Below the pieces are notes generated by a model, which saw only the letters and a program-made list of their open reading frames with translations, was not told where the DNA came from and searched no databases. This document shows, piece by piece, positions 11,210 through 59,646 of a DNA stretch of 64,000 nucleotides. The DNA is from Waterburya sp. GTDB lineage: Bacteria; Cyanobacteriota; Cyanobacteriia; Cyanobacteriales; Xenococcaceae. The DNA is taken from contig CBDCJV010000002.1 in the NCBI GenBank assembly GCA_965217895.1, positions 2,688,001 through 2,752,000 of the forward strand. The letters run 5' to 3'. The translations under genes were made by a program, and so were the position numbers. How positions within the stretch are numbered: position 1 is the first letter of the stretch; each line of letters opens with the position of its first letter.

Positions 11210-11830
11210 TTTTGACTCTGAAGACTGCATTATGACCCGCCAAAATACAGAACTAAATACTGTCGAATTAGTGGCAAAAGACTTTGGACTTGCAGCTAAT
11301 TTGTTAGCAGATGCTTTTTTCGATAATCCTGCTCACGTATATATTTTTGCCGATCAATCCTCCAGACTAAAAGCATTGCAATGGGAATTAAAAGCTAATC
11401 TTAAGCTTAATTTGAGCCAACCAACACCTATTGGTAAGAGTTTTGCTTTAGTTGAAGCCAATAAACCGCCAGGAAATAGACAAATCAAAGCTATGGCTTT
11501 TTGGAATACTTCCAACTCAAGGTCTATTAGTTTTGTCAGCAAAATCAAGACAGGGCTGCTAACATTTCCGTTTCGCTATGGTTGGCAAACTTGGCAACAT
11601 TTGTCAGAAATAATGTCAGCGATAGAAGAAATTAAAGAGAAAACTATAGGACAAAGCCCAGCATGGTATCTAAATAATATGGTGGTAGCCAAACAAATAA
11701 GAGGGATAGGAATTGGTACAAAACTGCTTAACCATCAACTTCAATCTGTAGTTGTCCCTTCTAATTTTCCTGTCGTTTTGATGGCGAGGGGTGCTACGTG
11801 CGGACAAGTCCTTCGTGTTTAGGAAGCATG

Positions 11831-14008
11831 GTAGAGTTGAGGGAGAGTATTACCTCTGGCCCCTCTCTGTTAGATCTGTACGTGCGTCTTTCGACGCATA
11901 CAGCTCCCGAAACTTTTAGCTGTCGCTTTTACGGTTGTGTATATAGTCATGACAGGATTCGTGTATTGCCACTAAATTGTTATGACTCCAGTTGTTGTGA
12001 TTTCCATCTACATGATGTAGATTTACTTTCTCATTGCCTATGAGTTTTAATCTACAGGCTACAGATGAATGGTTTTGCCTTCTAAGGGCTTTAGAGGTTT
12101 CTCCATCGTATAGTTTGCTGTTGCGTTTACTCCAGTAAACTATATCTCCGTCAAATGGGGATTTATCTCCTTTGACGTTGATGAATTTATTTTCGGAGTA
12201 TGGGACTTTTGGGAACGCTATATCCAGAAGTTTTTTGCTAGAATAACGGTCTTGTTTTGTTTGCCGATTAAATACCTTAAACGCTCTTTTCTGCATATAG
12301 TAGAGGCTATTTCTAGCCCCATCCATTTTGCAGTAGCAATGGTAGTTTCTCCATCCTCTAACAACGGCGGCTAGTTTACTAGCCTTGACCGTCGCACCAT
12401 AGTTGGAGTTATTGATGATAGATTTTGTTTTCCTATAGAAAGCTCTGAAGTTTTCCACCGAAGGTCGGCTTCTGAACTTTCCATTCTTTTGGACTCGAAA
12501 ATTCCAGCCCAGGAAGTTGAATCCATCTGTCGTTGCTGTCAGCTTTGTCTTTGTTTCGCTGATTTCCATTCCTCGTTTGGCAAGGAATTCTTTAACCTCA
12601 TCAAGTATTTTTTTAGCATCGTCTTGAGGTTTTAGGATGTAAATCATATCGTCTGCATATCTAATACATTTTGATGTGCTTAATCCCCTGGTGCTTTTAT
12701 ATTCACCAATGTTCTCAATTGCGTTGAGTGCTATGTTAGCTAATAAAGGCGAAGCAACCCCGCCCTGTGGCGTTCCTTGTTCTGGAAATCCTACATTTGT
12801 TCCTGCTTTGAGGCATCTGAAGATGCCAAGCTTTAACCCTGATGGGGCAATTAGGTTCTCCATAATTGTGGAATGGTTGATTCTATCAAAGCATTTTTTA
12901 ATATCAATTTCGAGTACTCGTTTATTGATACCTTTCACTCTCGCATTTAAGTTGTCGAACAGGTGCTTTTGCGCGCAATGCGTGCTTCTTCCTGTTCTGA
13001 AACCGTAACTACGGGCGTGGAAAGTGGCTTCGTGTGCTGGTTCTAAAGCGTATTTTGCCAGGCATTGCCAAGCTCTGTCGCTAATAGTTGGAACTTTTAA
13101 AATTCGTTTAGTACCATCCTTTTTTGGGATAGGTATTTCCCGTAATCCTTGGTGTTTCCAATTATTAACTTTCAACTTTATTTGTTTTTCGAGTTCAAAG
13201 CGTTCTTGAAAATTCAAGTTACCTTTTCCGTCGATACCAGCGGTTTTCTTTCCCTCGTTTAGCTGTGTTACTTGCCTAATGGCTAAGAATCTTGCTCCTT
13301 GAGAGCGGAGTATCAGTTTTTGCAGTGACCTTGCTTTTTGCATATCTGCTGCTCGAACTGCTTTCCATACGCGCTTTTGTAAGCGGAAAGTCTCTTTTTG
13401 GAATTTCTTCCAAGGTAAGAATTCCCAGGATTCACTATTAACTGTGTCAATGTGTCTAATCATGCTTTACTCTAGTTTGTATGTTCTAAGTTCCTCAGAC
13501 CAATTACGGTCTGTCCTACCCGAATCTAAGGGATTAATCCTCTCGTCTGGTCTACCGTGGATGCGACCTATCCACAGACCTTAGATTCGTTTTTATTCGT
13601 TCCATTCGATTGATGTTTATTTCCTTTAGGTAGAATCAATTAAACCGCCTAAATCCCATACTCTTGCCAATGTCTTGGATAAAACTTGGCGGGATACATA
13701 GCTTAGGCAACCTCGGACTAGGAATTGCGTCCGTGTAGGCGTAGGTTTCTTTTCTAGGTTCTGTTTTACCGTGGGAATTCCCTATTAGCGTCAGTGTCTT
13801 CTGCAATTGAAGTCTGATTACGCCCTGTTCCCAGCTTCGCTCTGTAGAATTCCGAGTCTACTCGGCGTGGGCAGATAAGGAGTCACCCGTGAGTTTCGGG
13901 GGGAGGGCTTGCACCTCCATTAATCGAACAGTTATCATCTAGCTAATGAAAACTAGAAGCCCTGATTTATATGGGTTTTATCTCACTTTCGTCAGGAACG
14001 AATCGCAC
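11831..14008 (-). mobile_element. Group II intron (IIB/chloroplast-like type inferred)
   Basis: 5' GTGCGATTCGTT at 14008; domain V GAGCTGTATGCGTCGAAAGACGCACGTACAGATC (11906-11873) with AGC triad; domain VI with bulged A and 3' end ...AACTCTAC at 11831; RT ORF inside. Confidence 0.95.
11916..13463 (-). CDS. ltrA: Group II intron reverse transcriptase/maturase with C-terminal HNH
   Basis: GKKTAGIDG, PTISDRAWQ, SYGFRTGRS, GTPQGGVASPLLANIAL, RYADD, FLGWNF, VRGWRNY, LHHVDGNHNN...HESCHDYIH. Confidence 0.96.
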   Translation of the reverse strand: MIRHIDTVNSESWEFLPWKKFQKETFRLQKRVWKAVRAADMQKARSLQKLILRSQGARFLAIRQVTQLNEGKKTAGIDGKGNLNFQERFELEKQIKLKVNNWKHQGLREIPIPKKDGTKRILKVPTISDRAWQCLAKYALEPAHEATFHARSYGFRTGRSTHCAQKHLFDNLNARVKGINKRVLEIDIKKCFDRINHSTIMENLIAPSGLKLGIFRCLKAGTNVGFPEQGTPQGGVASPLLANIALNAIENIGEYKSTRGLSTSKCIRYADDMIYILKPQDDAKKILDEVKEFLAKRGMEISETKTKLTATTDGFNFLGWNFRVQKNGKFRSRPSVENFRAFYRKTKSIINNSNYGATVKASKLAAVVRGWRNYHCYCKMDGARNSLYYMQKRAFKVFNRQTKQDRYSSKKLLDIAFPKVPYSENKFINVKGDKSPFDGDIVYWSKRNSKLYDGETSKALRRQNHSSVACRLKLIGNEKVNLHHVDGNHNNWSHNNLVAIHESCHDYIHNRKSDS

Positions 14009-14193
14009 ACCCAATCGCCATGTTGATGACACAGAAAGAAGAAAACGTTAGATTTTATCAGCGATTAGGATTTGAAATTGCCCATAAATCAGTAATAGGC
14101 AGAAAAAATGTGTTTACCAACTGGTGTTTAGTTTTCACTTAGCCACAACTCTAGTAATCAGCAGGCTTTTAACAGCATCAAGATAATTAGCAA

Positions 14194-15726
14194 TCAATTT
14201 ATTTCCCAAGAATCAATAATCTTTTCGGCAGTTTCTAAAAATTTAGAATACTTAGCTTTTTCGGCAGTATAAATAGCAATATATACTTGCTTATTTTTGA
14301 TTGTAAATACTTCCATTTGCCTTAACTGTAATCCTCTTTCTTGACGAGAATAAACGATCATGCGGGCAGGAAACTCATCGATTTTGGTTTGACGGTTTTC
14401 ATCTATTTCGATATTGTTTGCCTTATCTTGTTTGATCCGCTTAAAAACAGTCTGACCATATTGTTCTAAGGTAGTAGATTTAGAAGGTAAATATTCAACA
14501 GCAATAGACACCTTTTCTAAAAACAAGTCTGCGTTATTTTCCAAAGGAGAAGCAAAAACTACTACTTCTCCTGTAATCGGGTCATCTAAATCTCTTTTTG
14601 ACCACGTTTGAGGATATTTAAGCTTAAATTGATAATAATTGTTGACATAATCGACAAAGCCTTGATAGGCATTTTTGTTCATGCCAATGAATATGATTAT
14701 CAAGGCGATAATAAAAGGCAGTGCTAATAATGACCAAATGATTCGTTTGCTAAATTTAAAACGGGAATTGCTTTTAGACCTAATCTGCTTTCTGCTTTTA
14801 GGCATTACAGTAAAAGGCATTTCCCCGCCAGAAGATTGAGGCGATTGAGGATTAAGTGCAAAAGGAGGCGGAAAAACAACTACATTTTGTTGCTCAAAAT
14901 CGAGTTCGGCGATAACTTCAGCAGCAGACTGATAACGTAAAGATGGTTTTTTTTCTACCATTTTGTTGAGAATACTAGCAAGTTTAGAATCAATATCGGC
15001 ACTGGAGTAGGTGTTAGATGTTGAAGCTTGCTGAGTGTCGTCGGGAGAAGGTGTTTTTGGCTGAATAAATTCCGAAACCTTTTTGGTTAGAGCATAAATA
15101 ATTGTTTTGCCTAAGGCATAAACGTCAGTAGTAAAATCGGCTTTTCCTTCTATCTGTTCGGGGGCAGCAAAATCTTGATTAACTATAGTTTGTAAAGATT
15201 TATTTTTAAATAGAATAGAGTTTTTAATTGCTGCAAAATTGGTCAAAAACTTTCTACCATCTTGATGCTGAATTAAACTTGAAGGCTGAATATTTAAGTG
15301 AGCTACATTAGCTTGATGAATAAATTCGAGAATTCTTAAAATTTCTTGTAACCATTCAATAGCTTCTGCCTCATCAATAAGAGAACGTTCTAACCTTTGC
15401 TCTAAAGTTTCGCTCTCAAAAAGTTCCTGAACCAAATAAAATTGGCGATCGCATTCAAAAAAAGCCAGTAGTTGAGGGATTTGCGGATGCTGGCTAATTT
15501 TTTTAAGGACATTACCCTGTTCGACAAACGCCTGGAGTACCTTTTGCCAAGACTGAGTACCTAAGACTTCACTTTCATACTGAGGCTGTAACCTTTCAAT
15601 TTGACATTGAGGAGAGTTTACATTTGCCAGATCTTCGGCTGCATAAAGGGTACTAAAATCATCCTGACTTAGTTCTCGAATAATGCGATAGCGATCGCTT
15701 AATATCTTACCAACTATTGACTCCAT
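14194..15726 (-). CDS. Ser/Thr kinase-like (probable pseudokinase) with TM helix and PsbP/DcrB-like C-terminal domain
   Basis: Hanks-type fold (HPQIPQLLAFFE, FAAPEQ, DVYALG, RYQSA) with degenerate catalytic motifs; TM IIWSLLALPFIIALIIIFIG; C-terminal FKLKYPQTW...IIDSWEI. Confidence 0.85.
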   Translation of the reverse strand: MESIVGKILSDRYRIIRELSQDDFSTLYAAEDLANVNSPQCQIERLQPQYESEVLGTQSWQKVLQAFVEQGNVLKKISQHPQIPQLLAFFECDRQFYLVQELFESETLEQRLERSLIDEAEAIEWLQEILRILEFIHQANVAHLNIQPSSLIQHQDGRKFLTNFAAIKNSILFKNKSLQTIVNQDFAAPEQIEGKADFTTDVYALGKTIIYALTKKVSEFIQPKTPSPDDTQQASTSNTYSSADIDSKLASILNKMVEKKPSLRYQSAAEVIAELDFEQQNVVVFPPPFALNPQSPQSSGGEMPFTVMPKSRKQIRSKSNSRFKFSKRIIWSLLALPFIIALIIIFIGMNKNAYQGFVDYVNNYYQFKLKYPQTWSKRDLDDPITGEVVVFASPLENNADLFLEKVSIAVEYLPSKSTTLEQYGQTVFKRIKQDKANNIEIDENRQTKIDEFPARMIVYSRQERGLQLRQMEVFTIKNKQVYIAIYTAEKAKYSKFLETAEKIIDSWEIN

Positions 15727-15805
15727 GCAAGTCCAGCTATATTTACGATTGCAAATAAATAAAAAGTTAAAAGTTACTATTACTGATTATAACTAGGACA
15801 ATTTT

Positions 15806-16366
15806 TTAGCTAGATAGTTCCTGTTCTAACTTGTCTAAACGAGCAAGTACTTCTTGACTATGAATACTAGGTCTAACTCCCAAAAAAGCCTCTCGTAAAA
15901 CACCTTGAGGATCGATTAAATAAGTGTGTCTTAAGGACATTGCTCCTAACCAAGAGCCATAAGCCTTACTTACGCTACCTTTGGTATCTGCTAATAAAGG
16001 AAATTTAAGCCCCTGAGCATCGCAAAATTCAGCATGAGAATCAACATCATCAACGCTCACTCCCAAAATTTGCGTGTTTCTTGCCTCATATTCTGCTAGA
16101 TCTTGCTGAAAACGTCGAGCTTCCAGGGTACAGCCAGAAGTAAAATCTTTAGGGTAGAAATATAGCACTACCCATTTACCCTGGTAATCTTTGAGAGAAA
16201 TATCACCATCTCCCGTGTTGGTAGGTAAGACAAATTCGGGTGCAGGTTCATTTAGAGGCGGTTGTTTGCCTCCCATTGCCCAAGCATTAGGCAATATCGT
16301 TGTGCAAGAAAGTAATAAAGACAAGGCAACAGCTAGCCAGAATCGAATCGAAATCAAACGTTTCAT
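15806..16366 (-). CDS. bcp: Peroxiredoxin, BCP/PrxQ family, with signal peptide
   Basis: YFYPKDFTSGCTLEA; FPLLAD; N-terminal signal-like segment. Confidence 0.92.
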   Translation of the reverse strand: MKRLISIRFWLAVALSLLLSCTTILPNAWAMGGKQPPLNEPAPEFVLPTNTGDGDISLKDYQGKWVVLYFYPKDFTSGCTLEARRFQQDLAEYEARNTQILGVSVDDVDSHAEFCDAQGLKFPLLADTKGSVSKAYGSWLGAMSLRHTYLIDPQGVLREAFLGVRPSIHSQEVLARLDKLEQELSS

Positions 16367-16545
16367 AATTTACAAAAATATGATTTACTTAACATAAAGA
16401 TTACAAGTAATGCTAAGACCATAACAAAAAATTAATATATTCAATTAATTTAGAATGGTTCTCATGGAGAAAATATTCTCGTGCGACTTGTTAGCATCGT
16501 CATTCTGAACCAAGCATAAGCAATAAAAATTAAGATGCAGATATT

Positions 16546-17706
16546 ATGAGTAAAGACTTAATTGCACCTCATGGTGGTGAATTAATCGATCGTTTGGCAA
16601 CCCCAGCCGAAAAAGAAGACTTTCTAGCCAAAGCCGACTCTTTACCCAGAGTTCAGTTAGACGAAAGAGCTACATCCGATCTGGTCATGATCGCCATTGG
16701 CGGATTTAGCCCAATTAATGGCTTTATGGGTCAAGAAGACTATATAGGCGTAGTGGAAAAAATGCGTTTAGCTAATGGTTTACCTTGGTCTATACCTGTG
16801 ACTCTCTCCGTAACTAAAGAGGTTGCCGATCCTTTAGAAGTAAATAGTTTGATTCGTTTAGATAATCCTGATGGCAAATTTGTTGGGGTTTTACAGCTAA
16901 AAGAGAAGTATAGCTACGATAAGAAGCACGAGGCTGCAAACGTTTACGGCACGGAGGAAGACAAGCATCCTGGAGTCAAAGTGATTTATGACCAAGGAGA
17001 AATCAATCTAGCTGGCAAAGTCTGGTTGCTAAAAAGAGAAGATCACCCTCAGTTTCCTGAGTATCAAATCGATCCTGCTGCCTCTAGAGCCATGTTTAAA
17101 GACAGAGGCTGGAAAACGGTAGTCGGCTTTCAAACTCGTAATCCAATTCACCGCGCTCACGAATACATTATCAAGTGTGCTTTAGAAATTGTTGATGGTT
17201 TGTTTCTTCATCCTTTGGTGGGAGCAACAAAAAGCGATGACATTCCTGCTGATGTCCGAATGCGCTGTTACGAAATCATGATGGAAAACTATTTTCCTCA
17301 AGAACGAGTAATTTTAGCTATTAATCCCTCTGCCATGCGTTATGCAGGACCAAGAGAAGCTATTTTCCACGCTTTAATTCGCAAAAATTATGGCTGTACT
17401 CACTTTATTGTTGGTCGCGATCACGCTGGAGTAGGTGACTATTATGGAACTTATGATGCTCAAGAAATTTTTGGAGAATTTGCACCAGAAGAACTAGGTA
17501 TTACACCTCTCAAGTTTGAACACGCCTTTTACTGCACGCGAACAGAACAGATGGCAACAGCTAAAACTAGCCCTGCAACTAAAGATGAGCGAATTCATTT
17601 ATCAGGAACAAAGGTAAGGGCTATGTTAAGAGAAGGCAAAACACCTCCACCTCAATTCTCTCGTCCTAAAGTTGCCGAAGAACTAGCTAGAGCCATGAAA
17701 GCTTAA
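16546..17706 (+). CDS. sat: Sulfate adenylyltransferase
   Basis: [41 protein letters not shown]. Confidence 0.98.
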
Positions 17707-17769
17707 TAGTCTAGGACATTACCTCGTTACGAGATAATTTATGAATTACTAAAGTAAAACACTATAATT

Positions 17770-17817
17770 GGTTACAGGTTGAGAATACTTAAGCTAGTCT
17801 CAATCTGTAACCTTTTT
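17770..17817 (+). terminator. Intrinsic terminator after sat
   Basis: GGTTACAGGTTGAGA / TCTCAATCTGTAACC stem followed by TTTTT. Confidence 0.75.
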
Positions 17818-17885
17818 GATTTTAAATAATATTTAACAGCTATTGCTGATAGGCTGATAGCTGATATTAAAAGCTAGTAGCTGAT

Positions 17886-20177: not shown

Positions 20178-20196
20178 GGGATGAAGGATGAAGTAA

Positions 20197-20260
20197 GTAG
20201 GGTGGGCAAACTAAAAACGAAGTGTGTCAACATACGCTAAAACCAAATTTGCCCACCTTA
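20197..20260. repeat. REP-like GTAG-initiated inverted repeat
   Basis: GTAGGGTGGGCAAA ... TTTGCCCACCTTA; related copy at 59718-59747. Confidence 0.6.
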
Positions 20261-20291
20261 TTGAAGTAATCAGTAATCAATTAAGTGCTAT

Positions 20292-28493: not shown

Positions 28494-28582
28494 TGTTCGC
28501 AGTGAAGCATTTTCGTTGCGGGGCTTTCCCCGTTGAGACAAAGGACTTGACTTGTCCGCATGTAGTGCTGAACCCGAAGAAC
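28494..28582. repeat. GC-rich nested hairpin micro-element
   Basis: CGGGGCTTTCCCCG hairpin plus GACTTGTCCGCATGTAG, which matches the GNAT micro-element at 16/17 nt. Confidence 0.6.
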
Positions 28583-28657: not shown

Positions 28658-29449
28658 GTGGTAAAGATGACATTAGCTACATACGGAAGTTTATGTACGG
28701 AGGTATATGAGATTACCAAACCAGTAGGTAAGGACTATCCTGATGTTTCCTATTTTATTCAACATCTTTCTCAGCTAGACGGGCGAATTCTGGAGGCAAT
28801 GGTTGGCACAGGACGCTTACTGATTCCTCTACTAGAAGCTGGGTTAAACGTTGAAGGAATTGATGTATCACCCGATATGCTAGCTGCCTGTAAACAAAAT
28901 TGTGCAACAAGAGGCTTAAATCCTGTACTTTACGAAGGTTCAATCGAAAACTTGAACATTTCAGGTAAGTTTAGTGCAATTATCATCACTTTAGGCTCTT
29001 TCATGTTGTTAGGAAAACGCTCTGCTGCGATCTCCGCATTACAAGCATTTGCAAAACATCTAGAACCCAATGGAAGAATTTTTATAGATTTAGGATTACC
29101 TGTAGATTTAATTACAACTGAGAACATTGTTAAACAACGAGAACCCGTCAAGTGTTTTGATGGTTCAGTGATTCTAATGCAAACATCATCTCGTATCGAT
29201 TGGATAGAGCAAGTAGAGCATACTCTGATTCGCTATGAAAAATGGCAAGATGGAAAACTAATTGATACAGAACTACAACATCTTCCGTTACATTGGTTTG
29301 GGCTAGAAGAATTTGTCATGTGTTTACGAGAGAATGGATACACTGACATTAGTGTTTGTGCTAATCATACAGATGAATTAAAACCAAGTTCTTGTCATGA
29401 CCAACTCTGTTTTTCAGCAACTCTTGCCTCAAAAGTATTTGAGAATTAG
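28658..29449 (+). CDS. Class I SAM-dependent methyltransferase
   Basis: ILEAMVGTGRLLIPL, GIDVSPDML, HLEPNGRIFID. Confidence 0.9.
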   Translation: MVKMTLATYGSLCTEVYEITKPVGKDYPDVSYFIQHLSQLDGRILEAMVGTGRLLIPLLEAGLNVEGIDVSPDMLAACKQNCATRGLNPVLYEGSIENLNISGKFSAIIITLGSFMLLGKRSAAISALQAFAKHLEPNGRIFIDLGLPVDLITTENIVKQREPVKCFDGSVILMQTSSRIDWIEQVEHTLIRYEKWQDGKLIDTELQHLPLHWFGLEEFVMCLRENGYTDISVCANHTDELKPSSCHDQLCFSATLASKVFEN

Positions 29450-34565: not shown

Positions 34566-35941
34566 TGGCAGTACAGATTCCCTTTGCTACTGTTTCTAAG
34601 CTGCATGAAGCAAAAGTAATCGAAGATATTTTCTTTACAGGTTTATTGCAGCAGTGTCAGGTGCGTGACAATGAATCTAAGTGGTTGCAAAATGTCCGTC
34701 AACAGTCGAAAAACTGGTTGTCTCGTTTATCTGTACCGACAAACAAGGATGAAGACTGGCGTTTTATTGATTTGTCATCCTTGAGCAAAGCAAAATTTGT
34801 AGCAGCACAAAATGTAGTAGGGGTGTTTCGCGAAAGCGGTGCGACCCCGCGTCGACGAAAGGCGCAAGGGAACGCGCACCAAGACACGCCCCTGCCAGAT
34901 ACAGAATCTAGCCGTTTAGTTTATGTCAACGGAATATACAACGCTGAATTATCAAACATATCAGGGTTGCCCACAGGTGTATACTTTGGTGGTTTGGACG
35001 ATTTACCGAAAGACTATGACGCTGCTCAATATTTTGCTCAACAACATGGTGCGGAGGACGCCTTTACAGCATTAAATACCGCAGGTGGTTTAGATGTAGC
35101 GGTGATTTGGACGAGTAAAGATGTGGTAGTAGAAACTCCAATACACCTAGTGTTTATCGCCGATGGCGAATCAGAGTCTATCTTTGCTCAACCTCGTACC
35201 TTAGTTGTAACAGAAAGTGGCTCAAATATTTCTTTAATCGAAGAATATATTGGTACAGGAGAATACTTCACTAACGCTGTTACCGAAGTTTTTGTCAAAG
35301 ATAACGCCAGAGTAAATCATACCCGTCTGCAAGAAGAATCAGCAGCTAGCTTTCATATTGGCAAAACTGCCGTATCTCAAGGGCGTGATAGTCACTATAC
35401 AATTAACGAGATTAATCTGGGCGCAAAACTATTTCGTCATAACCCAGAGGTATTGCAGCAGGGAGAACAAACCGAAAGCAACCTCAATGGTTTGACTGTA
35501 GCTACAAAAGAACAAGTATCTGATACCCATAGTATTATTGCTTTAACTAAACCTCATGGCACTACAAATCAACTGCATAAATGTATTGTAGGCGATCGCG
35601 CTCACACAGTTTTTAACGGTAAGGTATTTGTCCCCAAAGAAGCACAGCTTACGGATGCCACACAGCTAAACCGCAACCTCTTACTTTCTTCTAAAGCTAG
35701 GGTAGACACTAAGCCAGAGTTACAAATTACCGCCGATAACGTAAAGTGCGCTCATGGTGCAACAGTAAGCCAGCTAGAAGCCGAGGAAATTTTCTATCTT
35801 CGTAGTCGTGGTTTAAGTGAATCTGATGCTAACCAATTATTAATCGATGCTTTTGCAGCAGAGATAGTCGATCGCATTCCTCTAGAATCTTTAAGAAACA
35901 GAATTACCCAGACTATCAAACAAAAAGTTATTAACCAATAA
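34565..35941 (+). CDS. sufD: Fe-S cluster assembly protein SufD carrying an in-frame repeat insertion
   Basis: EDWRFIDL, VFNGKVFV, DTKPELQITADNVKCAHGATV, FYLRSRG; foreign segment at about aa 85-111. Confidence 0.96.
   Translation: MAVQIPFATVSKLHEAKVIEDIFFTGLLQQCQVRDNESKWLQNVRQQSKNWLSRLSVPTNKDEDWRFIDLSSLSKAKFVAAQNVVGVFRESGATPRRRKAQGNAHQDTPLPDTESSRLVYVNGIYNAELSNISGLPTGVYFGGLDDLPKDYDAAQYFAQQHGAEDAFTALNTAGGLDVAVIWTSKDVVVETPIHLVFIADGESESIFAQPRTLVVTESGSNISLIEEYIGTGEYFTNAVTEVFVKDNARVNHTRLQEESAASFHIGKTAVSQGRDSHYTINEINLGAKLFRHNPEVLQQGEQTESNLNGLTVATKEQVSDTHSIIALTKPHGTTNQLHKCIVGDRAHTVFNGKVFVPKEAQLTDATQLNRNLLLSSKARVDTKPELQITADNVKCAHGATVSQLEAEEIFYLRSRGLSESDANQLLIDAFAAEIVDRIPLESLRNRITQTIKQKVINQ
34817..34895. 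repeat. Nested REP-like palindrome inside sufD
   Basis: Outer GTAGGGGTGTTTCGCGAA...ACGCCCCTGC with a 51-nt GC-rich inner insert (34835-34885). Confidence 0.8.
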
Positions 35942-41214: not shown

Positions 41215-41337
41215 TTAAAATTAACAAGATCGGCTATTAAAGGCAACTGAACTATTTTTTGAGATGCTTGCTAAAATCTCATTGATAAAAAATGGTGAGC
41301 TATATCTAGATAACCCACCTTAATAACTTTACCAACT

Positions 41338-41473
41338 GTCACAGATTGCTCTGTCCGTTTAGGAGTCCACTTTGCCTGGGGTGTCCCCAGGCATTTATGA
41401 GCGTGGGCTATGCCGAACTTGGTTTCGCATCTAGAACCACGCTGTTGTGGGACGTGGAGGAGTAATCTGTGAC
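41338..41473. repeat. Long hairpin 3' of sodN filled with nested GC-rich micro-elements
   Basis: Outer GTCACAGATTGCTC / GAGTAATCTGTGAC; inner TGCCTGGGG-TGT-CCCCAGGCA and AGCGTGG/CCACGCT; blocks shared with 59601-59646. Confidence 0.75.
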
Positions 41474-42284: not shown

Positions 42285-42373
42285 CGGAGAGGGGGGGATT
42301 CGAACCCCCGATGAAGTTTACACCCCATAACTCCTTAGCAGGGAGCCGCTTTCAACCGCTCAGCCACCTCTCC
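42285..42373 (-). tRNA. tRNA-Ser(GCT)
   Basis: GGAGAGG acceptor stem, anticodon arm CTCC-CTGCTAA-GGAG, long variable arm, GGTTCGAATCC. Confidence 0.95.
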
Positions 42374-44246: not shown

Positions 44247-44459
44247 TTTTTTTAGACTGGGCGAAAAAAATCATATTTTTCTATTGTAGTGCAATGAAAC
44301 CGTTTTAATTACAAGATTTTTCTGACTACAAAAATTGCCTTAGGATACAAGGTTTTAAACTCAAAATATTTTACTTATTCAGGTATCAAATCACAGTTAG
44401 TTTGTATGTGCCGTTATTAAAATTAATTTAATATACACATTTAATTTTGGTATTTACAA

Positions 44460-44804
44460 ATGAATTTTATCAATAGTTTTAATCATTTAGCTTTCCCTTT
44501 ATTTCTACTCGGCGCATTTCTAGTTTTTTTCAGCCTTATGTCGGCTGATTTTTCCAAAAAATCTCAAGATCACAATGTTGAGTTAGAAAAGTTTTATGAA
44601 ACGGTATGTCAAAACAAAAACATTGAACTGCAATTAGAATCAGTTGAGACAAAATCTGATTTTATTAACACTTTAGTCAGAGTAGGCTCGTCATTAGGAT
44701 ATAGCTTTACTGTCACCGACGTAGAAGAATCAATCCAAAGTTTTACAAACCAAACTTATAGCGATCATATTTGTTTATCAATTGGCTGCTGGAAGTTCGG
44801 TTAA
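44460..44804 (+). CDS. Nif11-like domain protein with N-terminal TM helix
   Basis: LEKFYETV...LQLE...FINTLVRVGSSLGYSFTVTDV resembles a Nif11 leader; hydrophobic N-terminus; C-terminal ICLSIGCW. Confidence 0.65.
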   Translation: MNFINSFNHLAFPLFLLGAFLVFFSLMSADFSKKSQDHNVELEKFYETVCQNKNIELQLESVETKSDFINTLVRVGSSLGYSFTVTDVEESIQSFTNQTYSDHICLSIGCWKFG

Positions 44805-44863
44805 TTAGAAATTATGCTGAAATTATAAATTAGTGTCTCAATTATTTAACGCCGAAAACCAAC

Positions 44864-45028
44864 GGCGTTGCTGATTAAGTAATGTCGTACAAAAGATTAC
44901 TATCTGTAGCTATAAGCTTTTTTAAATCAACATGGCGATTGGACTTGCTTGCAGACCCCGCGTCGCCATCAAACTCTATTTTTGAAGAGACAAAATAATG
45001 CTTCATAGCATTACAATTCAGCAACGCC
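44864..45028. mobile_element. MITE, copy 2 (opposite orientation), containing a 42-nt micro-element
   Basis: TIR GGCGTTGCTGA; perfect TSD AAACCAAC at 44856-44863 and 45029-45036; ends match the reverse complement of 37257-37393. Confidence 0.9.
44931..44972 (+). repeat. 42-nt micro-element with ATCAA duplication
   Basis: ATCAA|CATGGCGATTGG...GTCGCCATCAA; absent from MITE copy 1. Confidence 0.8.
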
Positions 45029-45035
45029 AAACCAA

Positions 45036-47412: not shown

Positions 47413-47797
47413 GTTTTTTGGCTGCAGGAAGAGTCAGGAGATAAATAGATTCTACTGACGAAAAAAGAGTTTCAATCAGCAAAACGTTCTAATCTGAAGA
47501 ACAATCGCGATCGCCACTGGGTAAAATTATTAGTCAAGACTCGCCGTTTGGTAGAAACAAGCTCTGGATAGCTTCGACGTGCTTTGCACGGCGGAGTGTC
47601 GTAGGCACTCATTGGACAACTGAGCGAACGTTTTCACCTTCAAAGTGTTCGAGCCAGAGATTTGTGGCATTTAACTAACCGTGTTAACCGTAAACTTTTG
47701 GCACATACTTTAGCTTTCTGGATTAATCGCTATTCTTTTTATCCCCTCCGTTTTGAGCAGATCATTTCTGACTAAATAAAAAAGATGCACACGCCGT
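47413..47797 (+). mobile_element. IS982-family transposase remnant (3' end) with a micro-element insertion
   Basis: KRSNLKNNRDRHWVKLLVKTRRLVET[insert]IGQLSERFHLQSVRARDLWHLTNRVNRKLLAHTLA...*; probable right end ...TGCACACGCCGT. Confidence 0.8.
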
Positions 47798-49579: not shown

Positions 49580-49648
49580 TCTTTGAGTAGATAACTAGAG
49601 TCATGTTGTTAGAATAGAGCTTTTTATGGTTTAAAGAAGAAATAAAAT

Positions 49649-50140: not shown

Positions 50141-50212
50141 AGCCCCCAGTGAGAATTGAACTCACGGCCTCATTCTTACCAAGAATGCGCGCTACCACTG
50201 GGCTATGGGGGC
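50141..50212 (-). tRNA. tRNA-Thr(GGT)
   Basis: GCCCCCA/TGGGGGC acceptor, CATTC-TTGGTAA-GAATG anticodon arm, GTGAG-TTCAATT-CTCAC T arm; one D-stem mismatch. Confidence 0.9.
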
Positions 50213-52782: not shown

Positions 52783-52853
52783 TAAGCAATTCCGTTACAT
52801 TTACTTCACTACCCTAAGAAAGCTATAAGTTAATCTGCTCAAGTAAACAAAAA

Positions 52854-52883
52854 AAAGAGTCGAGCTAATAAACTTGACTCTTT
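52854..52883. terminator. Bidirectional terminator between the TPR gene and tRNA-Glu
   Basis: AAAGAGTCGAG / CTTGACTCTTT stem flanked by A- and T-runs. Confidence 0.65.
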
Positions 52884-52899
52884 GATCTTTTTTTTTTGA

Positions 52900-52972
52900 T
52901 ACCCCCAAGGGAATTTGAATCCCTGTCGCCTCCGTGAAAGGGAGGTGTCCTAGGCCACTAGACGATGGGGGC
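52900..52972 (-). tRNA. tRNA-Glu(TTC)
   Basis: GCCCCCATCGTCTAGTGGCCTAGGACACCTCCCTTTCACGGAGG...GGGGGTA. Confidence 0.96.
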
Positions 52973-53088
52973 TTAGGGCTGTTGCTTGCTTTTGCGCAGC
53001 GCAACTGGCAACGTTTCTAAATATATCGAATATTTTTATAGGTGTCAATGCTTTTTGAAAAAATAGTCATTCAAACCAAGAAAAATTA

Positions 53089-53646
53089 TTATTGTATACC
53101 CCGCTGCATTTGCCTGAGACGTTTTTGCGCTGCGGGATCGAGGGTATTGAATAAAAAACGACCAGAAGGCTTCTTCTTTGTCTGTTTTCTGGTTTTGCTT
53201 TTGATTTGATAGTCTGCTCGTTTTACTTCTTTTGCCAGCATAGGAGCGGACAGCCATTCTGCACCGTATCCTACTACCGTAAGCTGTTGGGCGCGATCGC
53301 TCGTGGCAACAATTAACCGAGTAGACTCTTGCTGATATTTTTTTCGGCCAAATGTGGCACAGAATTTTTCGATGTAGGTATCGGCGGTTTCGGCAAACGC
53401 TGTGTAATGGACTGATAAAGCAGCGGTATGATCTTCCACGCTGCGAGGGGTGTCTTGATAGTGAGCGTCGAAAACTACTTTAGTGCGGTAAGCAACCGCA
53501 GCAGTATAATTAATTAGGCATTCAACTAATTCATAACGGGCTGCTTCTAAACCGTGGCGATCGCGACTGTTTTTTAAGTCCGACCAGTCGCCAATGATAT
53601 TGTAACCATCGACGAGTAGTATCGCCTGGTATGAGTGAGGTAACAT
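53089..53646 (-). CDS. NYN-domain (YacP/Rae1-like) ribonuclease
   Basis: LLVDGYNIIG, VVFDA, ETADTYIEK, IVATSD. Confidence 0.92.
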   Translation of the reverse strand: MLPHSYQAILLVDGYNIIGDWSDLKNSRDRHGLEAARYELVECLINYTAAVAYRTKVVFDAHYQDTPRSVEDHTAALSVHYTAFAETADTYIEKFCATFGRKKYQQESTRLIVATSDRAQQLTVVGYGAEWLSAPMLAKEVKRADYQIKSKTRKQTKKKPSGRFLFNTLDPAAQKRLRQMQRGIQ

Positions 53647-53860
53647 TGTAGTAAATGGTTTTATAGGAGAGTAGGTGTTGATCTAAATCCTATTCTAAGC
53701 AAAATTGTTAACAAAAAGTTAAACAAGATGAATATCGTGGCTAACTCGAACTCTTGAGCAGTCAGTAACGATATTCATAGCTTTTAGCTATTAGCAATCA
53801 GCTTTATGAAGAAATCCACCTTAGTTAAAGGCAATTAGTGCAGAATTGGCATTAAGGGGT

Positions 53861-54559
53861 TTATGATCTTCCTGTTGCCAGTAATTTTTCCTTAAGTCTT
53901 TGAGGATCTCCTTTTGCCATCACTTTTCCTCTGTCTAGCAGAAAAGCTCCGTCACAATAGTCTAATTCTTCTAGGCGATGAGTTACCCACAAAGCAGTAA
54001 GATTGCGCTGCTTAACCAAATTTTTTACCTGAGCTACCAATTCTAGTTGCGTATCAGGGTCTAGTAAAGCTGTGGGTTCGTCAAACAAAATTGTCTCACA
54101 GTTACGGGCAACAGCACCAGCGATCGCAATTCTTTGTTTTTGTCCCCCACTCAGCGCGTGAATTGGTCGTCTTTCTAAATTCAATAGATTGACTGCATCT
54201 AAAGCTGCTCTAACTCTTTCTCTGACCTGAGCTATAGACAATTTCTCACTCACCAAACCAAAAGCAATATCTGCCCCAACCGTGGGCATAACTAGCTGAT
54301 GGTCTGGGTTCTGGAAAACAAATCCTGTCTTATAAGGCATGACAATAGAGCCAGCATCAGGAATTAACAATCCTGCTAATAGTCTTAATAAGGTGGATTT
54401 TCCGCTACCGTTGTTGCCCAGCAGCATCCAAAATTCTCCTTGAGGGACTTCTAGGGAGCAATCATTTAGTACTATAGCCTCTGGTGACCAGCGAAAACAT
54501 AAGTTGTTAACTTTAATAACTGATGATTTGTCTAACTTCTGCTCAGTGGAGTAGGTCAT
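53861..54559 (-). CDS. ECF-type ABC transporter ATPase
   Basis: GNNGSGKST, VFQNPDHQLVMPTV, LSGGQKQR, DEPTALLD. Confidence 0.92.
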   Translation of the reverse strand: MTYSTEQKLDKSSVIKVNNLCFRWSPEAIVLNDCSLEVPQGEFWMLLGNNGSGKSTLLRLLAGLLIPDAGSIVMPYKTGFVFQNPDHQLVMPTVGADIAFGLVSEKLSIAQVRERVRAALDAVNLLNLERRPIHALSGGQKQRIAIAGAVARNCETILFDEPTALLDPDTQLELVAQVKNLVKQRNLTALWVTHRLEELDYCDGAFLLDRGKVMAKGDPQRLKEKLLATGRS

Positions 54560-54834
54560 TATTCGCTGACGGCAGTAGCAGCGAAGAAACCAGGCACTCG
54601 ACCTTCTGCCATGCCGCCAGACTTTTTATTTATGTTGACAGCGCAGATCATGTTACCTTTGACCGCCACTTTTTTATCCTCATCTTTATCACAGGTGAGT
54701 TCAACGAGGTCTGAACTACCAGAACGCATGACCTGAAGTATCTCTTGATAAAGACTGTCTGCTGCTTCAGACTCTTTGCGATGTACGGAAATAGGTAAAG
54801 GAATGTCTTGTAAAACAATATCAATAGTGAACAT
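54559..54834 (-). CDS. Conserved cyanobacterial hypothetical protein
   Basis: PISVHRKE...ELTCDK...PGFF; stop overlaps the ATPase start. Confidence 0.8.
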   Translation of the reverse strand: MFTIDIVLQDIPLPISVHRKESEAADSLYQEILQVMRSGSSDLVELTCDKDEDKKVAVKGNMICAVNINKKSGGMAEGRVPGFFAATAVSE

Positions 54835-55101
54835 AGAGCTTTAAAAAAAGATTGCAACACTTAAATTATGGTCTAAATTCACGGAAATTCCCATCTTTAT
54901 TTGGTCTAATCTTTAGAAAAACTTTAACTTTTCTTTGGATTTGAGCTGGAAATTTTAGTTACTTTCTCTTATTATGTATAATATAAGTAAAGAAAAGTTA
55001 ACTTTTCTCACAATTGGCTTGATGTGTTTTCGTGTCAAGTCATAAAAAATTGTAATTATTCCAACGATCTTAATAAGTATAATTTCGGAGATCTAATCTA
55101 T

Positions 55102-56160
55102 ATGACAATAGCAGTAGGACGCGCGCCGTCACAACAGGGCATCTTTGATGCAGTTGATGACTGGCTAAAGCGCGATCGCTTTGTATTCGTAGGCTGGTCG
55201 GGGATTCTTCTATTCCCCTGTGCCTACATGGCAATCGGTGGCTGGCTAACCTGCACCACCTTCGTTACCAGTTGGTACACCCACGGTTTAGCTTCTTCAT
55301 ATCTAGAAGGATGCAACTTCCTAACCGTAGCAGCATCCACCCCCGCAGACAGCATGGGACATTCTCTATTGTTCCTTTGGGGGCCAGAAGCAGGCTGGAG
55401 CTTTACCCGCTGGTGTCAAATCGGTGGTTTGTGGGCATTTGTGGCACTGCATGGAGCATTTGCCCTAATCGGCTTTATGCTGCGTCAGTTTGAGATTTCG
55501 CGTTTAGTAGGGATTCGTCCTTACAATGCGATCGCCTTTTCTGCCCCCATCGCCGTATTTGTCTCCGTATTCTTGCTCTATCCTTTAGGACAGTCAAGCT
55601 GGTTCTTTGCACCTAGCTTAGGTGTAGCGGGAATCTTCCGTTTCATCCTGTTTGTTCAAGGATTCCACAACTTCACCCTCAATCCCTTCCACATGATGGG
55701 AGTAGCTGGTGTGTTAGGTGGGGCATTACTCTGTGCGATTCACGGAGCAACAGTCGAAAACACTCTGTTTGATGACGGTGGTGAAGCAAACACATTTAGA
55801 GCCTTTGAGCCGACCCAAGCAGAAGAAACCTATAGTATGGTAACAGCCAACCGCTTCTGGTCACAGATATTTGGAATTGCTTTTTCCAACAAACGTTGGC
55901 TGCACTTCTTTATGTTATTCGTACCCGTAACAGGACTATGGATGGCAAGTATCGGCATCATCGGTATTGCCTTGAACCTAAGAGCTTATGACTTCGTATC
56001 TCAAGAATTGAGAGCAGCAGAAGATCCTGAGTTTGAAACGTTCTACACTAAAAACATCTTGCTCAATGAAGGTCTAAGAGCATGGATGGCATCACAAGAC
56101 CAACCACATCAAAACTTTGAGTTTCCTGAAGAAGTATTGCCTCGTGGTAACGCGCTGTAA
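55102..56160 (+). CDS. psbD: Photosystem II D2 protein (monocistronic copy, no psbC downstream)
   Basis: MTIAVGR start, [14 protein letters not shown], Tyr[24 protein letters not shown]; 352 aa. Confidence 0.98.
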
Positions 56161-56236
56161 GAAACGCCAGAAAATTTATGCAGGTGAGGACAATATTATT
56201 CTTACTTGTTAATGTGAACTATACTTGGTTCTAGAT

Positions 56237-56265
56237 AAACTCCTCGCTATTGAGGGGTTTATTTT
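56237..56265 (+). terminator. psbD terminator
   Basis: AAACTCCTC / GAGGGGTTT stem followed by a T-rich run. Confidence 0.6.
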
Positions 56266-56455
56266 ATTTGATTATAATAAGTCTGCTCTAACTCTATTTA
56301 TCCACTACGTTTTCAACAACTTATTTCTGATCAAAAGTAGCACACGACATATTATCTAGATTAAAACAGTGCGATCGCCAAATTAGCAAACAACCACAAG
56401 CTATTTAACGATAAAATACTTTAGCGGAATATATAAATCATCAAAAAGGGCTTCG

Positions 56456-58891
56456 ATGCGCGTCTCTCTAAACTGGTTAAAAGAATTAGTCGATATCAAT
56501 ATGTCCCCAGAAGAGTTAGGTAGAGTCCTAACCATAGCAGGGTTTGAATTAGAAGAATTAATCAATCTGCGCGCCAACGCTGATGGTGTGGTGGTGGGGA
56601 AAGTAATAGAGCGATCGCAACATCCCAATGCTGATAAACTAAGCGTCTGTAAAGTAGATATAGGTGCGGACGAACCTTTAGATATTGTTTGTGGTGCATC
56701 TAATGTCAAGGCCGATATATTTGTTCCTGTAGCTACGGTAGGAACTTTTCTACCCGCCATTAATTTAAAACTCAAGCCGACTAAACTGCGGGGTGAACCT
56801 TCAGAGGGAATGATTTGTTCTTTGACGGAGTTGGGTTTGGGAAAAGAGTCCGACGGGATATATATATTTGAAAAGAATAATATCAAGCCTGGGGATGATG
56901 TTCGTCCTTTATTGGGTTTAGATGATGTCATTCTGGATTTGGCGACTACGGCTAACCGCGCTGATGCTTTAAGTATGGTAGGTATTGCACGAGAAGTTGC
57001 GGCTTTGACTGGTGCAGAAGTGAGACTACCTGAAATAAAAGAACAGAATATTGCAGCCAACAACTCTTTAGCTATTGAGATTCAAGAACCAGCAGCCTGC
57101 ATGGCATATATCGGTACAGTAATCGAAGGGGTAAAAGTTGCCCCTTCTCCTGACTGGTTGAAGTGGCGACTAGAAGCAGCAGGAACACGCCCGATCAATA
57201 ACGTAGTAGATATTACTAACTATGTTTTATTGGAATGGGGACAACCTCTTCATGCTTTTGATCGCGAGAGACTTCAGCAGGTTGCAGGAAGTAATAATTT
57301 AACTATCGGCGTGCGTTTTGCTCAATCAGGTGAAAAATTAAAAACGCTAGATGAACAAGAGCGAAATTTAGCTACTCAGAATTTATTAATTACCGCTAAT
57401 GACAAGCCTGTAGCTTTAGGAGGAGTTATGGGGGGAGAATCAACAGAAGTTGACGACAATACGAGCAATATCGTCTTAGAGGCAGCCCTATTCGATCCTG
57501 TGGCTATCCGTCGTTCATCCCGCGCCCAAAGTCTCCGCAGTGAAGCCTCTACCCGTTATGAAAGGGGCGTAAACCAAGTAGAATTAGAATTTGCCTGTAA
57601 AAGAGCGATCGCACTATTACAAAAATTAGCTAGCGGTACTCTTGTTACTCAAGCTATGTCCGATTATCGCCTCGATTTTTCTAGCCTTGATGCCATTAAA
57701 TTACGTCTGAGTAGAATTAATCAGATTTTAGGTACGGTAAACAATGAAGACGGCATTGGTTACATCAAGGCTGCTGATGTCGAATCAATTTTGGGTGCAT
57801 TAGGCTGTGATTTAGAGCCAGTCGCCGAGGAAGAGAATACCTGGATGGTGAAAGTTCCTCCCTATCGTTATCGCGATTTAGAGCGAGAAATTGACCTAAT
57901 TGAAGAAGTTGCCCGTCTTTATGGTTACGATCGCTTTTGTGATACTCTTCCTAATAAAACCGAACCTGGTTATCTTTCAACGGAATATGCAGTCAAAAAT
58001 AAACTTCGCGCTATTTTACGAGGTGTTGGCTTAACAGAAGTAGTGCAGTATTCTCTAGTAAAACCTACAGGTAAAGAAGTTACCTTGGCTAATCCTCTAT
58101 TTGCCGAATATTCGGCATTACGTGGTGATTTATTCTCTGGTTTATTGGATGCTTTTGTTTATAACCAGTCTCAGGGTAATGGCGCACTCAATGCTTTTGA
58201 AATCGAACGAGTATTTTGGCAAGCAGAAGATCGCTTACAAGAAAAAGATTCCGTTGCGGGAATTATGGGCGGTAATATTACCTCTCAGGGTATGTGGGTT
58301 GATGGTGGCAAAGGTACACCCATAACTTGGTATCAGGCGAAAGGAGTTTTAGAAAACGTCTTTAGTAATTTGGGAGTTAGCGTTGAATATCGCCAAGAAA
58401 GTGAAGAAGAAAGACTACATCCAGGGCGTACTGCTGCTTTATGGATACAAGGCAAGCGTTTAGGTGTCTTTGGACAAATTCACCCTCAACTGGCACAGGA
58501 GCGAGATTTAGCTAACGAAGTATATCTCTTTGAACTGGATTTTAGCATCTTGCTGACGGCCTTAAATCGAGATGCCATCACCACACCCAAATTTAAAACC
58601 TATTCTACCTATCCAGGTTCAGCTAGAGACTTGGCTTTCTTTGCCCCACTAGATTTATCTGTAGCAACTCTTGAGAAGGCAATAAGCAAAGCTGCTGGTA
58701 AATTACTCCAAAAAGTAGAGGTGTTTGATGAATATAAAGGTAAAAACGTCCCCGAGGGACAGCGCAGTTTAGCTTTCAACTTAGTTTATCAAGCAGGCGA
58801 TCGCACTTTAACTGACAAAGATGTCGATCCTGTTCATCAAAAAGTCCGCGACATTTTAGTTAAGAAGTTTAATGTGACTTTGCGAAGTTAA
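56456..58891 (+). CDS. pheT: Phenylalanine--tRNA ligase beta subunit
   Basis: [52 protein letters not shown]. Confidence 0.98.
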
Positions 58892-59022
58892 TTTTGCGTT
58901 TTCTCATAGCTTCTTAAGGCTAAAAGCTAATTCACATCAGGCGTATAATATATCGTAGTACATTGACTAGTTAGAACAGAAAAATGAACTGCTCGTAAAT
59001 AACAGGTAACAAGTAACAAGTA

Positions 59023-59120
59023 ATACTAAATCCTGTTCGTATAGGTGAGTTATTGATTTGAGAGGTCAGAGGTCAGAGGTCAGGAAGTTGATAATTAGCT
59101 TTGTCAATCAGATTTAGTAT
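59023..59120. mobile_element. MITE-like element with internal heptamer repeat
   Basis: Perfect 10-bp inverted ends ATACTAAATC / GATTTAGTAT; (AGAGGTC)3 at 59061-59081. Confidence 0.6.
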
Positions 59121-59294
59121 AATATCAAGTTCGGATAATTGCTTTAATACAATATGTATCCATGAAATGATTAAAACTGGGTCTAAAAAACTTGCTATCT
59201 GCACACGCTCCAGAACGCGCTACTTGCTACTTTACCTACCTAAATTTAACTCTTCATCCGAACCTAATATAACAAGTACGTATTGCTTATTTAC

Positions 59295-59516
59295 TCAAAC
59301 AGTTTGTAACATTCCTTGGAAAGTATTAACTTCTGGCAAAGCTATACCTTCTTCAATAGAAGAAGCAATCATTAATTGCAAGACCTCTTTACCATTACTC
59401 AGTGCTTCTTCGTAAGTATCTCCGTAAGTTTGACATTGTTCTCCCCACTCTGGAAAAGTAACCACGAAACAACTATCTTTTTTAGACCACTGAATAACTA
59501 TGCTGTAATTTAACAT
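59295..59516 (-). CDS. HicB-family antitoxin (orphan)
   Basis: YSIVIQWS..D.CFVVTFPE...TYGDTYEEAL.NGKEVL...G.ALP. Confidence 0.85.
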   Translation of the reverse strand: MLNYSIVIQWSKKDSCFVVTFPEWGEQCQTYGDTYEEALSNGKEVLQLMIASSIEEGIALPEVNTFQGMLQTV

Positions 59517-59568
59517 TTTGATTCTGCCCCTCAATATTTTAGAAAGTCATAGATTATCTCAATCCCCC

Positions 59569-59646
59569 TTGATGGCTTGCTCTCGGATGGGGAGACTCCG
59601 CCACGCTCATAAATGCCTTTTCGGGCGGTCAACGCGGACTCCTAAA
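59569..59646. repeat. GC-rich micro-element related to the one at 41338-41473
   Basis: CCACGCTCATAAATGCCT (59601-59618) and GGACTCCTAAA (59636-59646) are exact reverse complements of 41389-41406 and 41358-41368. Confidence 0.75.

Follow-up and report, generated by a model that had tools for sequence, protein, structure and literature searches.

The locus described here raises the question of what a scatter of short GC-rich sequences in AT-rich cyanobacterial DNA consists of, and by what means such sequences come to lie inside one another. How gene-less repeats of a few dozen bases move has, to our knowledge, been unsettled since the small dispersed repeats (SDRs) of Nostoc were described in 2008. 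The window, that is the whole stretch of 64,000 nucleotides that was analysed (G000:C2:2688001-2752000, to which the feature coordinates below are relative), belongs to the Waterburya sp. genome G000, which comprises 5.29 Mb in two contigs with 39% G+C. Seven GC-rich islands are found in it, denoted I1 to I7 in coordinate order. They form a mixed, nested set of non-autonomous GC-rich repeats, the kinds represented being two hairpin-cassette families, a palindrome resembling repetitive extragenic palindromic (REP) sequences, two mini-elements with inverted repeats and the exon sequence adjoining a group II intron. The two cassette families, termed B and S1, are the genuine genome-wide families among the sequence blocks that the islands have in common. 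For annotation purposes the islands are repeats and not regulatory RNAs.

An earlier note on this DNA, made from the sequence alone, had described the islands as GC-rich and structured, with exact blocks in common between pairs of them, and had read them as one set of modules inserting into each other. All four shared blocks are found exactly at the positions and in the orientations given there. With a G+C content of 52–67%, compared to about 39% for the window, the islands are GC-rich as described, whereas only two of the seven fold better than shuffled sequences. Words of at least 11 nt are common to three island pairs, as had been claimed; among 2000 mononucleotide shuffles one sharing pair was obtained in 56, two pairs in 1 and three pairs in 0. 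The over-representation expected of the shared words holds for two of them, as exact matches in G000 amount to 31 for GACTTGTCCGCA and 54 for GACCCCGCGTCG, both strongly over-represented, and does not hold for the others, with only 2 for AGGCATTTATGAGCGTGG, both inside the window, and 7 for TTTAGGAGTCC. Because of these low counts the pair I4/I7 constitutes a low-copy relation and not a genome-wide family. The modules are non-autonomous and nested in each other, as the earlier note held, but in place of its single set they comprise at least five kinds of element that are unrelated to each other. The note had made its reading depend on genome-wide over-representation of the shared words and on empty sites in close relatives; the reading survives on both points, since the 12-mers are over-represented and the modules vary in presence among close relatives.

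The B cassette, the S1 hairpin and their nesting

The B cassette is about 51–55 nt long and is composed of AGCG, a 5-nt arm, GACCCCGCGTCG, 6 nt, GRCGCAAG, GGAAYGC, the complementary arm and AAGAC, its consensus folding into a stepped hairpin. Allowing at most one mismatch, 75 B 5' halves are present in G000, namely 52 intact ones, 10 in which S1 replaces GGAA and 13 that are altered otherwise. At least 12 distinct arm pairs occur. Pairing is found in 151 of the 160 arm cells of the 32 unique copies that do not belong to the CGAGC subfamily, compared to 93 on average and 113 at most among 1000 shuffles. In the upper stem, the pair formed by core positions 24 and 34 is T·G in 32 of 43 unique copies, the others having T-A (7) or C-G (4). 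Shells lacking the core were not encountered among the 35 shell matches in G000. The contexts of the cassette are unrelated to each other, comprising heptamer arrays, the loop of a REP-like palindrome, the interiors of insertion sequences (IS) and, in frame, the gene sufD; the cassette ends are identical across them. Of 58 intergenic copies, 18 are located in convergent, 36 in co-directional and 4 in divergent spacers, the family thus avoiding divergent (promoter) spacers.

According to a pattern search, B is present in 36 of the 39 genomes of the genus sample (29 of the 39 being at least 90% complete) with 0 to 83 copies per genome. The highest counts are found in G049 (83), G045 (80), G050 (44), G000 (42) and G017 (29); G045, G049, G050 and G017 are the four closest relatives of G000, the first three of these genomes being complete. 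Beyond the genus, the 26-nt B core pattern is contained in records titled Xenococcus, Waterburya, Pleurocapsa, Hyella, Okeania, Dapis, Spirulina and Richelia, and none of 200 other genomes drawn evenly from the class harbors B. A subfamily with CGAGC/GCGAG arms (10 unique copies, e.g. at G000:C2:4815800) is always located in arrays of the CAGTTAG type; in mid-arm it would close with a tandem G·A/A·G mismatch instead of Watson-Crick pairs. Two B cassettes are positioned on the second, 87-kb contig (G000:C1:12787 and C1:79855) within elements identical or near-identical to chromosomal copies; transfer of carrier elements from one replicon to the other thus takes place.

The S1 hairpin comprises only 22 nt, in the order ACAAAG, stem, loop, stem and CGCATGTA. 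It is present in 60 copies in G000, compared to 1 for a scrambled-flank control; exact pattern matches number 41 and 0, respectively. The stem-loop occurs mainly as GGCTTTAGCC (19 copies), GGACTTGTCC (15), GGGCTTGCCC (13) and GGCTTAAGCC (7). The outer pair of the stem covaries, with AC..TGT in 42 and AG..TCT in 8 of the 60 copies and the mismatched AC..TAT in 7. Hence the check for covariation proposed in the earlier note turned out positive for the B arms and S1 stems alike. Fifteen of the 60 S1 copies reside between GCAAG and CGCGC of the B core, always at the same position and with at least five different cassette arms around them. The observation that blocks tend to sit in the loops of other hairpins is thereby borne out genome-wide for S1 within B (15 of 60 S1 copies; 10 of 75 B 5' halves), as well as for I3 in the window. 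Elsewhere, S1 is found in heptamer arrays, which are frequent in G000, beside HIP1 (GCGATCGC, with about 2950 occurrences in G000, or 5906 when both strands are counted) and at the end of an ISAs1-type element. None of 120 other genomes drawn evenly from the class contains S1.

Nesting within the window is seen in I3, which is located inside sufD (Pfam SUFBD_core, E 2e-83). Here a B cassette of 51 nt, the ends of which were set from B copies within heptamer arrays, occupies a REP-like palindrome. Taking out the 51 nt leaves the 28-nt palindrome and a length equal to that in the relatives. The cassette is missing in all ten relatives of the sufD alignment (ten relatives of eleven loci, G010 being left out), and of the four closest relatives G049, G050 and G017 are likewise without it. 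In G045, the closest relative, the same palindrome holds a different cargo of 105 nt, which is centred on another cassette with other arms, and the whole I3-type nest is found at two further places in that genome. Both cargos are in frame and add 17 residues to the protein in G000 and 35 in G045; repeats of this kind thus lengthen an essential protein. The core word of the outer shell is present in 43 copies in G000, the shell family being described by GTAGGGGCGAACGGCCGTTCGCCCCTAC, a 5' GTAG head followed by a palindrome.

The islands and their host elements

The borders of the islands and of the elements containing them are compiled in the table. Empty sites, which had been named as a check, are present in close relatives for I3, for I4 and for the miniature inverted-repeat transposable element (MITE) around I5. 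I1 and I2 give no clean junctions because the stretches containing them are replaced wholesale in the relatives.

Table. Window positions of the seven islands and of associated elements. RT, reverse transcriptase; ORF, open reading frame.
Feature	Position	Strand	Description
I1	11783..11830	-	3' exon flank of group II intron; right half of H hairpin element (...CTCGCCATCAA)
Group II intron	11831..14008	-	2178 nt, RT/maturase ORF 11916-13463
H element left arm (TCAACATGGCGATTGGGT)	14009..14027	-	5' exon flank of intron
I2	28494..28582	+	Composite of hairpin CGTTGCGGGGCTTTCCCCGTTGAG, S1 unit with internal GACTT duplication, GTGCTGAACCC tail
I3 outer shell, left arm (GTAGGGGTGTTTCGCGAA)	34817..34834	+	GTAG-headed 28-nt REP-like palindrome in sufD
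I3 cargo	34835..34885	+	51-nt B cassette: AGCGGTGC, 33-nt core, GCACCAAGAC; in frame, 17 codons
I3 outer shell, right arm (ACGCCCCTGC)	34886..34895	+	
I4	41333..41473	+	141-nt inverted-repeat mini-element, CAACT GTCACAGATT ... AATCTGTGAC
MITE hosting I5	44864..45028	+	Terminal inverted repeats GGCGTTGCTGA...TCAGCAACGCC, direct repeat AAACCAAC on both sides
I5	44931..44972	+	H element without intron (ATGGCGATTG...TCGCCATCAA)
I6	47560..47610	+	Three small hairpins in remnant of IS transposase gene
I7	59569..59646	+	GC-rich segment in place of unrelated GC-rich segment of similar length in four relatives

I1, which contains a diverged S1-type unit with the block GACTTGTCCGCA, adjoins a bacterial group II intron. 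The open reading frame (ORF) of this intron matches RVT_N, RVT_1 and GIIM of Pfam and encodes the reverse transcriptase (RT)/maturase; domains V-VI are recognized by the Rfam model RF00029 (Intron_gpII) at 11831-11908 with 53.4 bits, compared to a cut-off of 40; the 5' end reads GTGCG (at 14008), i.e. of the GUGYG type; and near-identical copies are present. Three such copies are found in G000 with 99.7–99.9% identity, which continues for 16–19 nt on the 5' side and for about 50 nt on the 3' side of the intron; farther out, their surroundings diverge. Homologues in the relatives, with 75–76% identity, span exactly 11830-14008. The flanks of the intron are the two arms of the H hairpin element, AACATGGCGATTG...CTCGCCATCAA, the left arm of which has 28 matches in G000, about 15 of them with a matching right arm within about 110 nt and with varied interiors. 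All three copies of one H variant carry the complete intron, and an intron-less copy of that exact variant is not present in G000. The stretch 11221-14192, about 3 kb with the intron-loaded hairpin, corresponds to 130–310 nt in the relatives; it is entered by a 219-codon ORF (11163-11822) without family match.

I5 is an H element as well, in this case without an intron, and lies within a MITE. This host is of the DDE type, as it possesses terminal inverted repeats and a target-site duplication; its end words occur 30–39 times in G000, and the orthologous site in G017 is without the whole MITE of about 172 nt. The match of GACCCCGCGTCG in I5 is made up of 9 nt plus TCG from the arm of another element (TCGCCAT), and perhaps it represents no true copy of the B cassette. 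In the vicinity, a 114-codon ORF (44460-44804) shows a weak match to Nif11-like leader peptides (E 0.0029, below the cut-off), and the stretch 44255-45029 is missing from G045.

The order of modules in I2 is repeated at C2 positions 699620 and 4106060 with compensating changes. In all four closest relatives, the window segment 28326-29680 (about 1.35 kb, containing I2 and a class I methyltransferase ORF at 28658-29449) has an unrelated sequence of 135–245 nt in its place.

I4 is positioned directly behind TTAC, 33 nt beyond the stop codon of the nickel superoxide dismutase gene, and its ends pair with each other over about 15 nt. The site is empty in G049 and G017 and carries a small deletion in G045. 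As the empty sites already read TTACTTAC, with both TTACs present, the insertion of I4 took place without target duplication. G000 contains 49 sites of the 10-nt end word GTCACAGATT/AATCTGTGAC, and only in I4 are both ends found within 400 nt. Two blocks of the I4 interior recur with similar spacing in I7. The flanks of the latter align to all four closest relatives with few differences, the right border GCGGACTCCTAAAATG being common to them; the island itself is unalignable (mean column identity of the whole alignment 88%). I7 lies in the upstream region of a conserved module of 430 nt (59288-59720), which is found at non-syntenic places in the four relatives and contains a short ORF on the minus strand, starting near 59517, that is HicB-antitoxin-like by eye only.

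I6 stands outside the repeat families. It has no words in common with the other islands, is flanked by ORF fragments on either side and is single-copy in G000 (3 BLAST matches); its counterpart in G017 is 97% conserved.

Possible modes of movement

We lean, at slightly less than an even chance, towards the explanation that the cassettes are pasted in without target duplication by a predicted enzyme that would read a folded single strand. B and S1 are regarded as protein-recognised mobile elements because their ends are fixed in unrelated contexts, their core is conserved, their copy numbers are burst-like and filled, empty and alternatively filled alleles exist. Since the ends are fixed and the core is conserved across distant cyanobacteria, a protein is predicted to recognise the element. 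The T·G pair, being kept on one strand, suggests this strand as the one that would fold. Hairpin loops and AT-rich spacers may be preferred as landing sites or may merely be tolerated, which would give rise to the nesting, and the complementarity of the arms might be maintained by repair templated within the hairpin. A wider proposal is put forward tentatively and is in our opinion doubtful, namely that marine cyanobacteria would possess a hairpin-cassette system independent of HUH-Y1, IS110 and group II enzymes, which would read the 33-nt core on the folded strand and write cassettes of 22–105 nt into hairpin loops, including those of palindromes in essential genes, and thereby create new peptide segments.

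A number of observations weigh against the pasting of cassettes by an enzyme. S1 takes the place of 4 nt (GGAA) in the B loop and is not simply inserted. When folded as single-stranded DNA within the island borders of the earlier note, with 200 shuffles per island, I1, I2, I3, I5 and I7 are no better folded than shuffled sequences (z -1.11 to +0.47), the two exceptions being I4 (z -8.05) and I6 (z -4.10) with 0 of 200 shuffles as good for each. The T·G pair represents one inherited position and not many independent events. Along the chromosome, the strands of B and S1 are mixed without bias, GC skew being weak, and no bias is found relative to co-directional neighbour genes either (B 19 same and 17 opposite, S1 11 and 20). 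Signs of recent jumping are scarce in G000, where a single identical 55-nt pair with unrelated flanks is found (identity 0.33 and 0.35), other identical B copies being located within larger duplications.

To these points the results on candidate enzymes have to be added. As movers acting in trans, the earlier note had suggested an RT, an HUH/RAYT (REP-associated tyrosine transposase) enzyme or an IS110-type recombinase. Co-occurrence can be tested within the genus only, because scans across the class detected neither B nor S1 outside G000, and across the 39 genomes all three classes fail. IS110 has 0 matches in G000 and in the four other cassette-richest genomes. For HUH-Y1, Spearman's rho with cassette number is -0.30 over all 39 genomes and -0.44 when only the 29 with a completeness of at least 90% are considered; 5 of the 11 genomes with at least 13 cassettes have no Y1 match, among them the complete genome G050 with 44 cassettes. 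For the group II RT/maturase the corresponding values are 0.12 and 0.04, and G003 has 22 cassettes and no GIIM match. These correlations are only indicative, as related genomes are not independent. The expectation that candidate enzymes would be flanked by the modules did not hold up either: in a clustering of neighbouring ORFs, no such gene recurs near the 135 B and S1 sites, and none of these sites has a Y1 gene nearby. The genes that do recur around them encode histidine kinases, response regulators and ABC transporters, all of them large families of paralogues, and pieces of DDE/ISAs1 transposases, the last of these belonging to carrier IS elements. The three obvious enzyme classes have thus been tested and are disfavoured as movers.

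The sole Y1 (HUH) match in G000 is RAYT-like and contains the motifs DHLH, WE and YIHYNP; the gene is frameshifted after 108 codons and is neighboured by GTAG-headed GTAGGGTGGGCA repeats and not by B or S1. A repeat of the GTAGGGTGGGCAAA type is located just downstream of this gene (G000:C2:2353336-2356584, local 1462-2070), and inverted pairs of the same type (REPIN-like) are found in the window at 20196-20260 and 59719-59749. TnpB was considered as a mover and discarded, the single TnpB locus of G000 being single-copy and without similarity to the islands. G000 has 8 RT matches, of which 3 are the intact copies of the one intron described above. A supposed resemblance of the B upper stem or the S1 tail to intron domain V was dropped as well, as an Rfam search of I3 at E values up to 10 yielded three chance-level matches and none to the intron model.

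Several other explanations compete with the enzymatic pasting of cassettes. An enzyme-free one, which we hold to be unlikely, assumes that the modules spread or swap by replication template switching or by gene conversion between palindromes, with the stems as microhomology; templating within the hairpin would then render changes in the arms compensatory in one step. Quasipalindrome template-switch mutation is an established process, and it would agree with I7, a clean swap of GC-rich segments between conserved flanks with a common right border, with the three states of the sufD palindrome among sister species (plain, 51-nt cargo and 105-nt cargo) and with the replacement of GGAA by S1 in the B loop, as well as with the lack of orientation bias and the fact that none of the tested enzymes tracks the cassettes. 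It does not readily account for identical cassette ends in heptamer arrays, a REP loop and an IS interior, for the conservation of the core across distant cyanobacterial groups or for bursts of copy number in one subclade; moreover, no common microhomology was seen at S1 junctions. The explanations that invoke HUH-Y1 or RT enzymes are ranked behind template switching because the co-occurrence tests failed. In the former, which we judge improbable, B and S1 would resemble REPs or palindrome-associated transposable elements (PATEs) and would have been moved on single-stranded DNA by a Y1 enzyme (RAYT or the TnpA of IS200/IS605) that has since decayed or been lost in several genomes. Such an origin would be in keeping with insertions lacking a target duplication, with the landing of I4 directly behind TTAC, with a hairpin shape that is conserved rather than its sequence, with the GTAG-headed palindrome forming the I3 shell, the core word of which is present 43 times, and with the RAYT-like gene beside the GTAGGGTGGGCA repeats; for cyanobacteria, PMC6006769 describes RAYT subclasses that have long REPs. 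On the other hand, the only Y1 match of G000 is frameshifted, cassette number falls as Y1 number rises and 5 of the 11 rich genomes are devoid of Y1, B and S1 have no 5' GTAG head, a replication-strand bias is not apparent (albeit at a weak GC skew) and the single TnpB locus has nothing in common with the islands.

Slightly less probable still is a route through RNA, in which folded hairpin transcripts would be copied back into DNA by an RT, for instance that of the resident group II introns; such a route is said to have been proposed for the Nostoc SDRs. The 8 RT matches with three intact intron copies among them, the lodging of this intron in a hairpin element of the network, the T·G (in RNA, G·U) pair kept on one strand and the precision of the insertions without duplication all speak for it. 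Contrary to it, the number of maturases is unrelated to that of cassettes, G003 with its 22 cassettes being a case in point, orientation is not biased with respect to transcription, I3 has no Rfam match above chance and none to the intron model, and poly-A or primer-like tails are absent. Finally, the islands might not be mobile at all and might instead be selected structural signals, i.e. terminators, RNA stabilisers or protein-binding sites that look alike due to a shared function. We regard this as barely credible: the enrichment of B behind genes and the covariation of the stems would be explained, but not an in-frame cassette in sufD that is missing in relatives, cassettes in both orientations relative to genes, nesting in IS elements, MITEs and heptamer arrays, or a range of 0 to 83 copies within one genus.

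Comparison with known repeats

The closest parallel is provided by the SDRs. Elhai et al. in 2008 reportedly described SDR1-8 of Nostoc punctiforme and relatives as gene-less repeats of about 21–27 nt in tens of dispersed copies. S1 is very short (22 nt) and gene-less too and has 60 dispersed copies; in B and S1 a common fold is kept by compensatory changes; and nesting is a further likeness, with S1 in B, both of them in heptamer arrays and the H element in a MITE. No mover is known to have been named for the Nostoc SDRs either. SDR5 is stated in PMC4390886 to insert within HIP1, and PMC3116915 is a further source citing SDRs. Contrary to the SDRs, B is about twice as long (51–55 nt) and its pattern is contained in records bearing the names of pleurocapsalean and oscillatorian genera, whereas SDR-like repeats are given in PMC5861425 as not seen outside Nostocaceae. 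Judged by description, B and S1 look like new members of the SDR kind in another cyanobacterial lineage.

REP/REPIN elements together with their RAYT (HUH-Y1) genes serve as another reference system (PMC3116915, PMC3733652 and PMC6006769). GTAG-headed palindromes are represented here by the I3 shell and the GTAGGGTGGGCA repeats, and the extragenic bias behind genes and the lack of target duplication are similar as well; B and S1 differ in having no 5' GT[AG]G head, in not flanking a RAYT gene and in an abundance that does not follow Y1. With regard to I4, the insertion immediately 3' of TTAC without duplication of the target (one site examined) is reminiscent of PATEs. These elements, derived from IS200/IS605 family members such as IS608, insert 3' of a fixed tetranucleotide and possess subterminal hairpins. 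I4, however, pairs end to end through a long terminal inverted repeat and does not possess two subterminal hairpins, and no element encoding TnpA or TnpB with the ends of I4 is present in G000. From DDE-type MITEs it is set apart by having the inverted repeat and no target duplication.

Insertion in frame into protein-coding genes is known from the palindromic elements of Rickettsia. As in these, translation of the I3 palindrome with its cargo adds a peptide to a conserved protein, SufD; phylum and sequence are different, and the sufD insert is a nest of two elements that varies among sister species. Repeated or hairpin sequences serve as homing targets for mobile group II introns of bacteria, and the presence of a complete RT/maturase intron in all three copies of one H variant is in line with this. 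In a literature search, later accounts of nested cyanobacterial hairpin MITEs and papers naming a mover of such repeats were not found. The genus constitutes a tractable case for the study of such movement, as it combines sharp cassette ends, copy numbers between 0 and 83 among 39 genomes and filled, empty and differently filled sufD alleles.

Apart from the domains of the group II intron, the only Rfam matches at gathering thresholds in the whole window are tmRNA and three tRNAs. The tmRNA gene is located at 4895-5285 on the minus strand and encodes the tag ANNIVKFERQAVAA; the tRNA genes are those of tRNA-Ser at 42285, tRNA-Thr at 50141 and tRNA-Glu at 52900. A long ORF of 1018 codons (59781-62837, minus strand), without Pfam match, is situated towards the end of the window.

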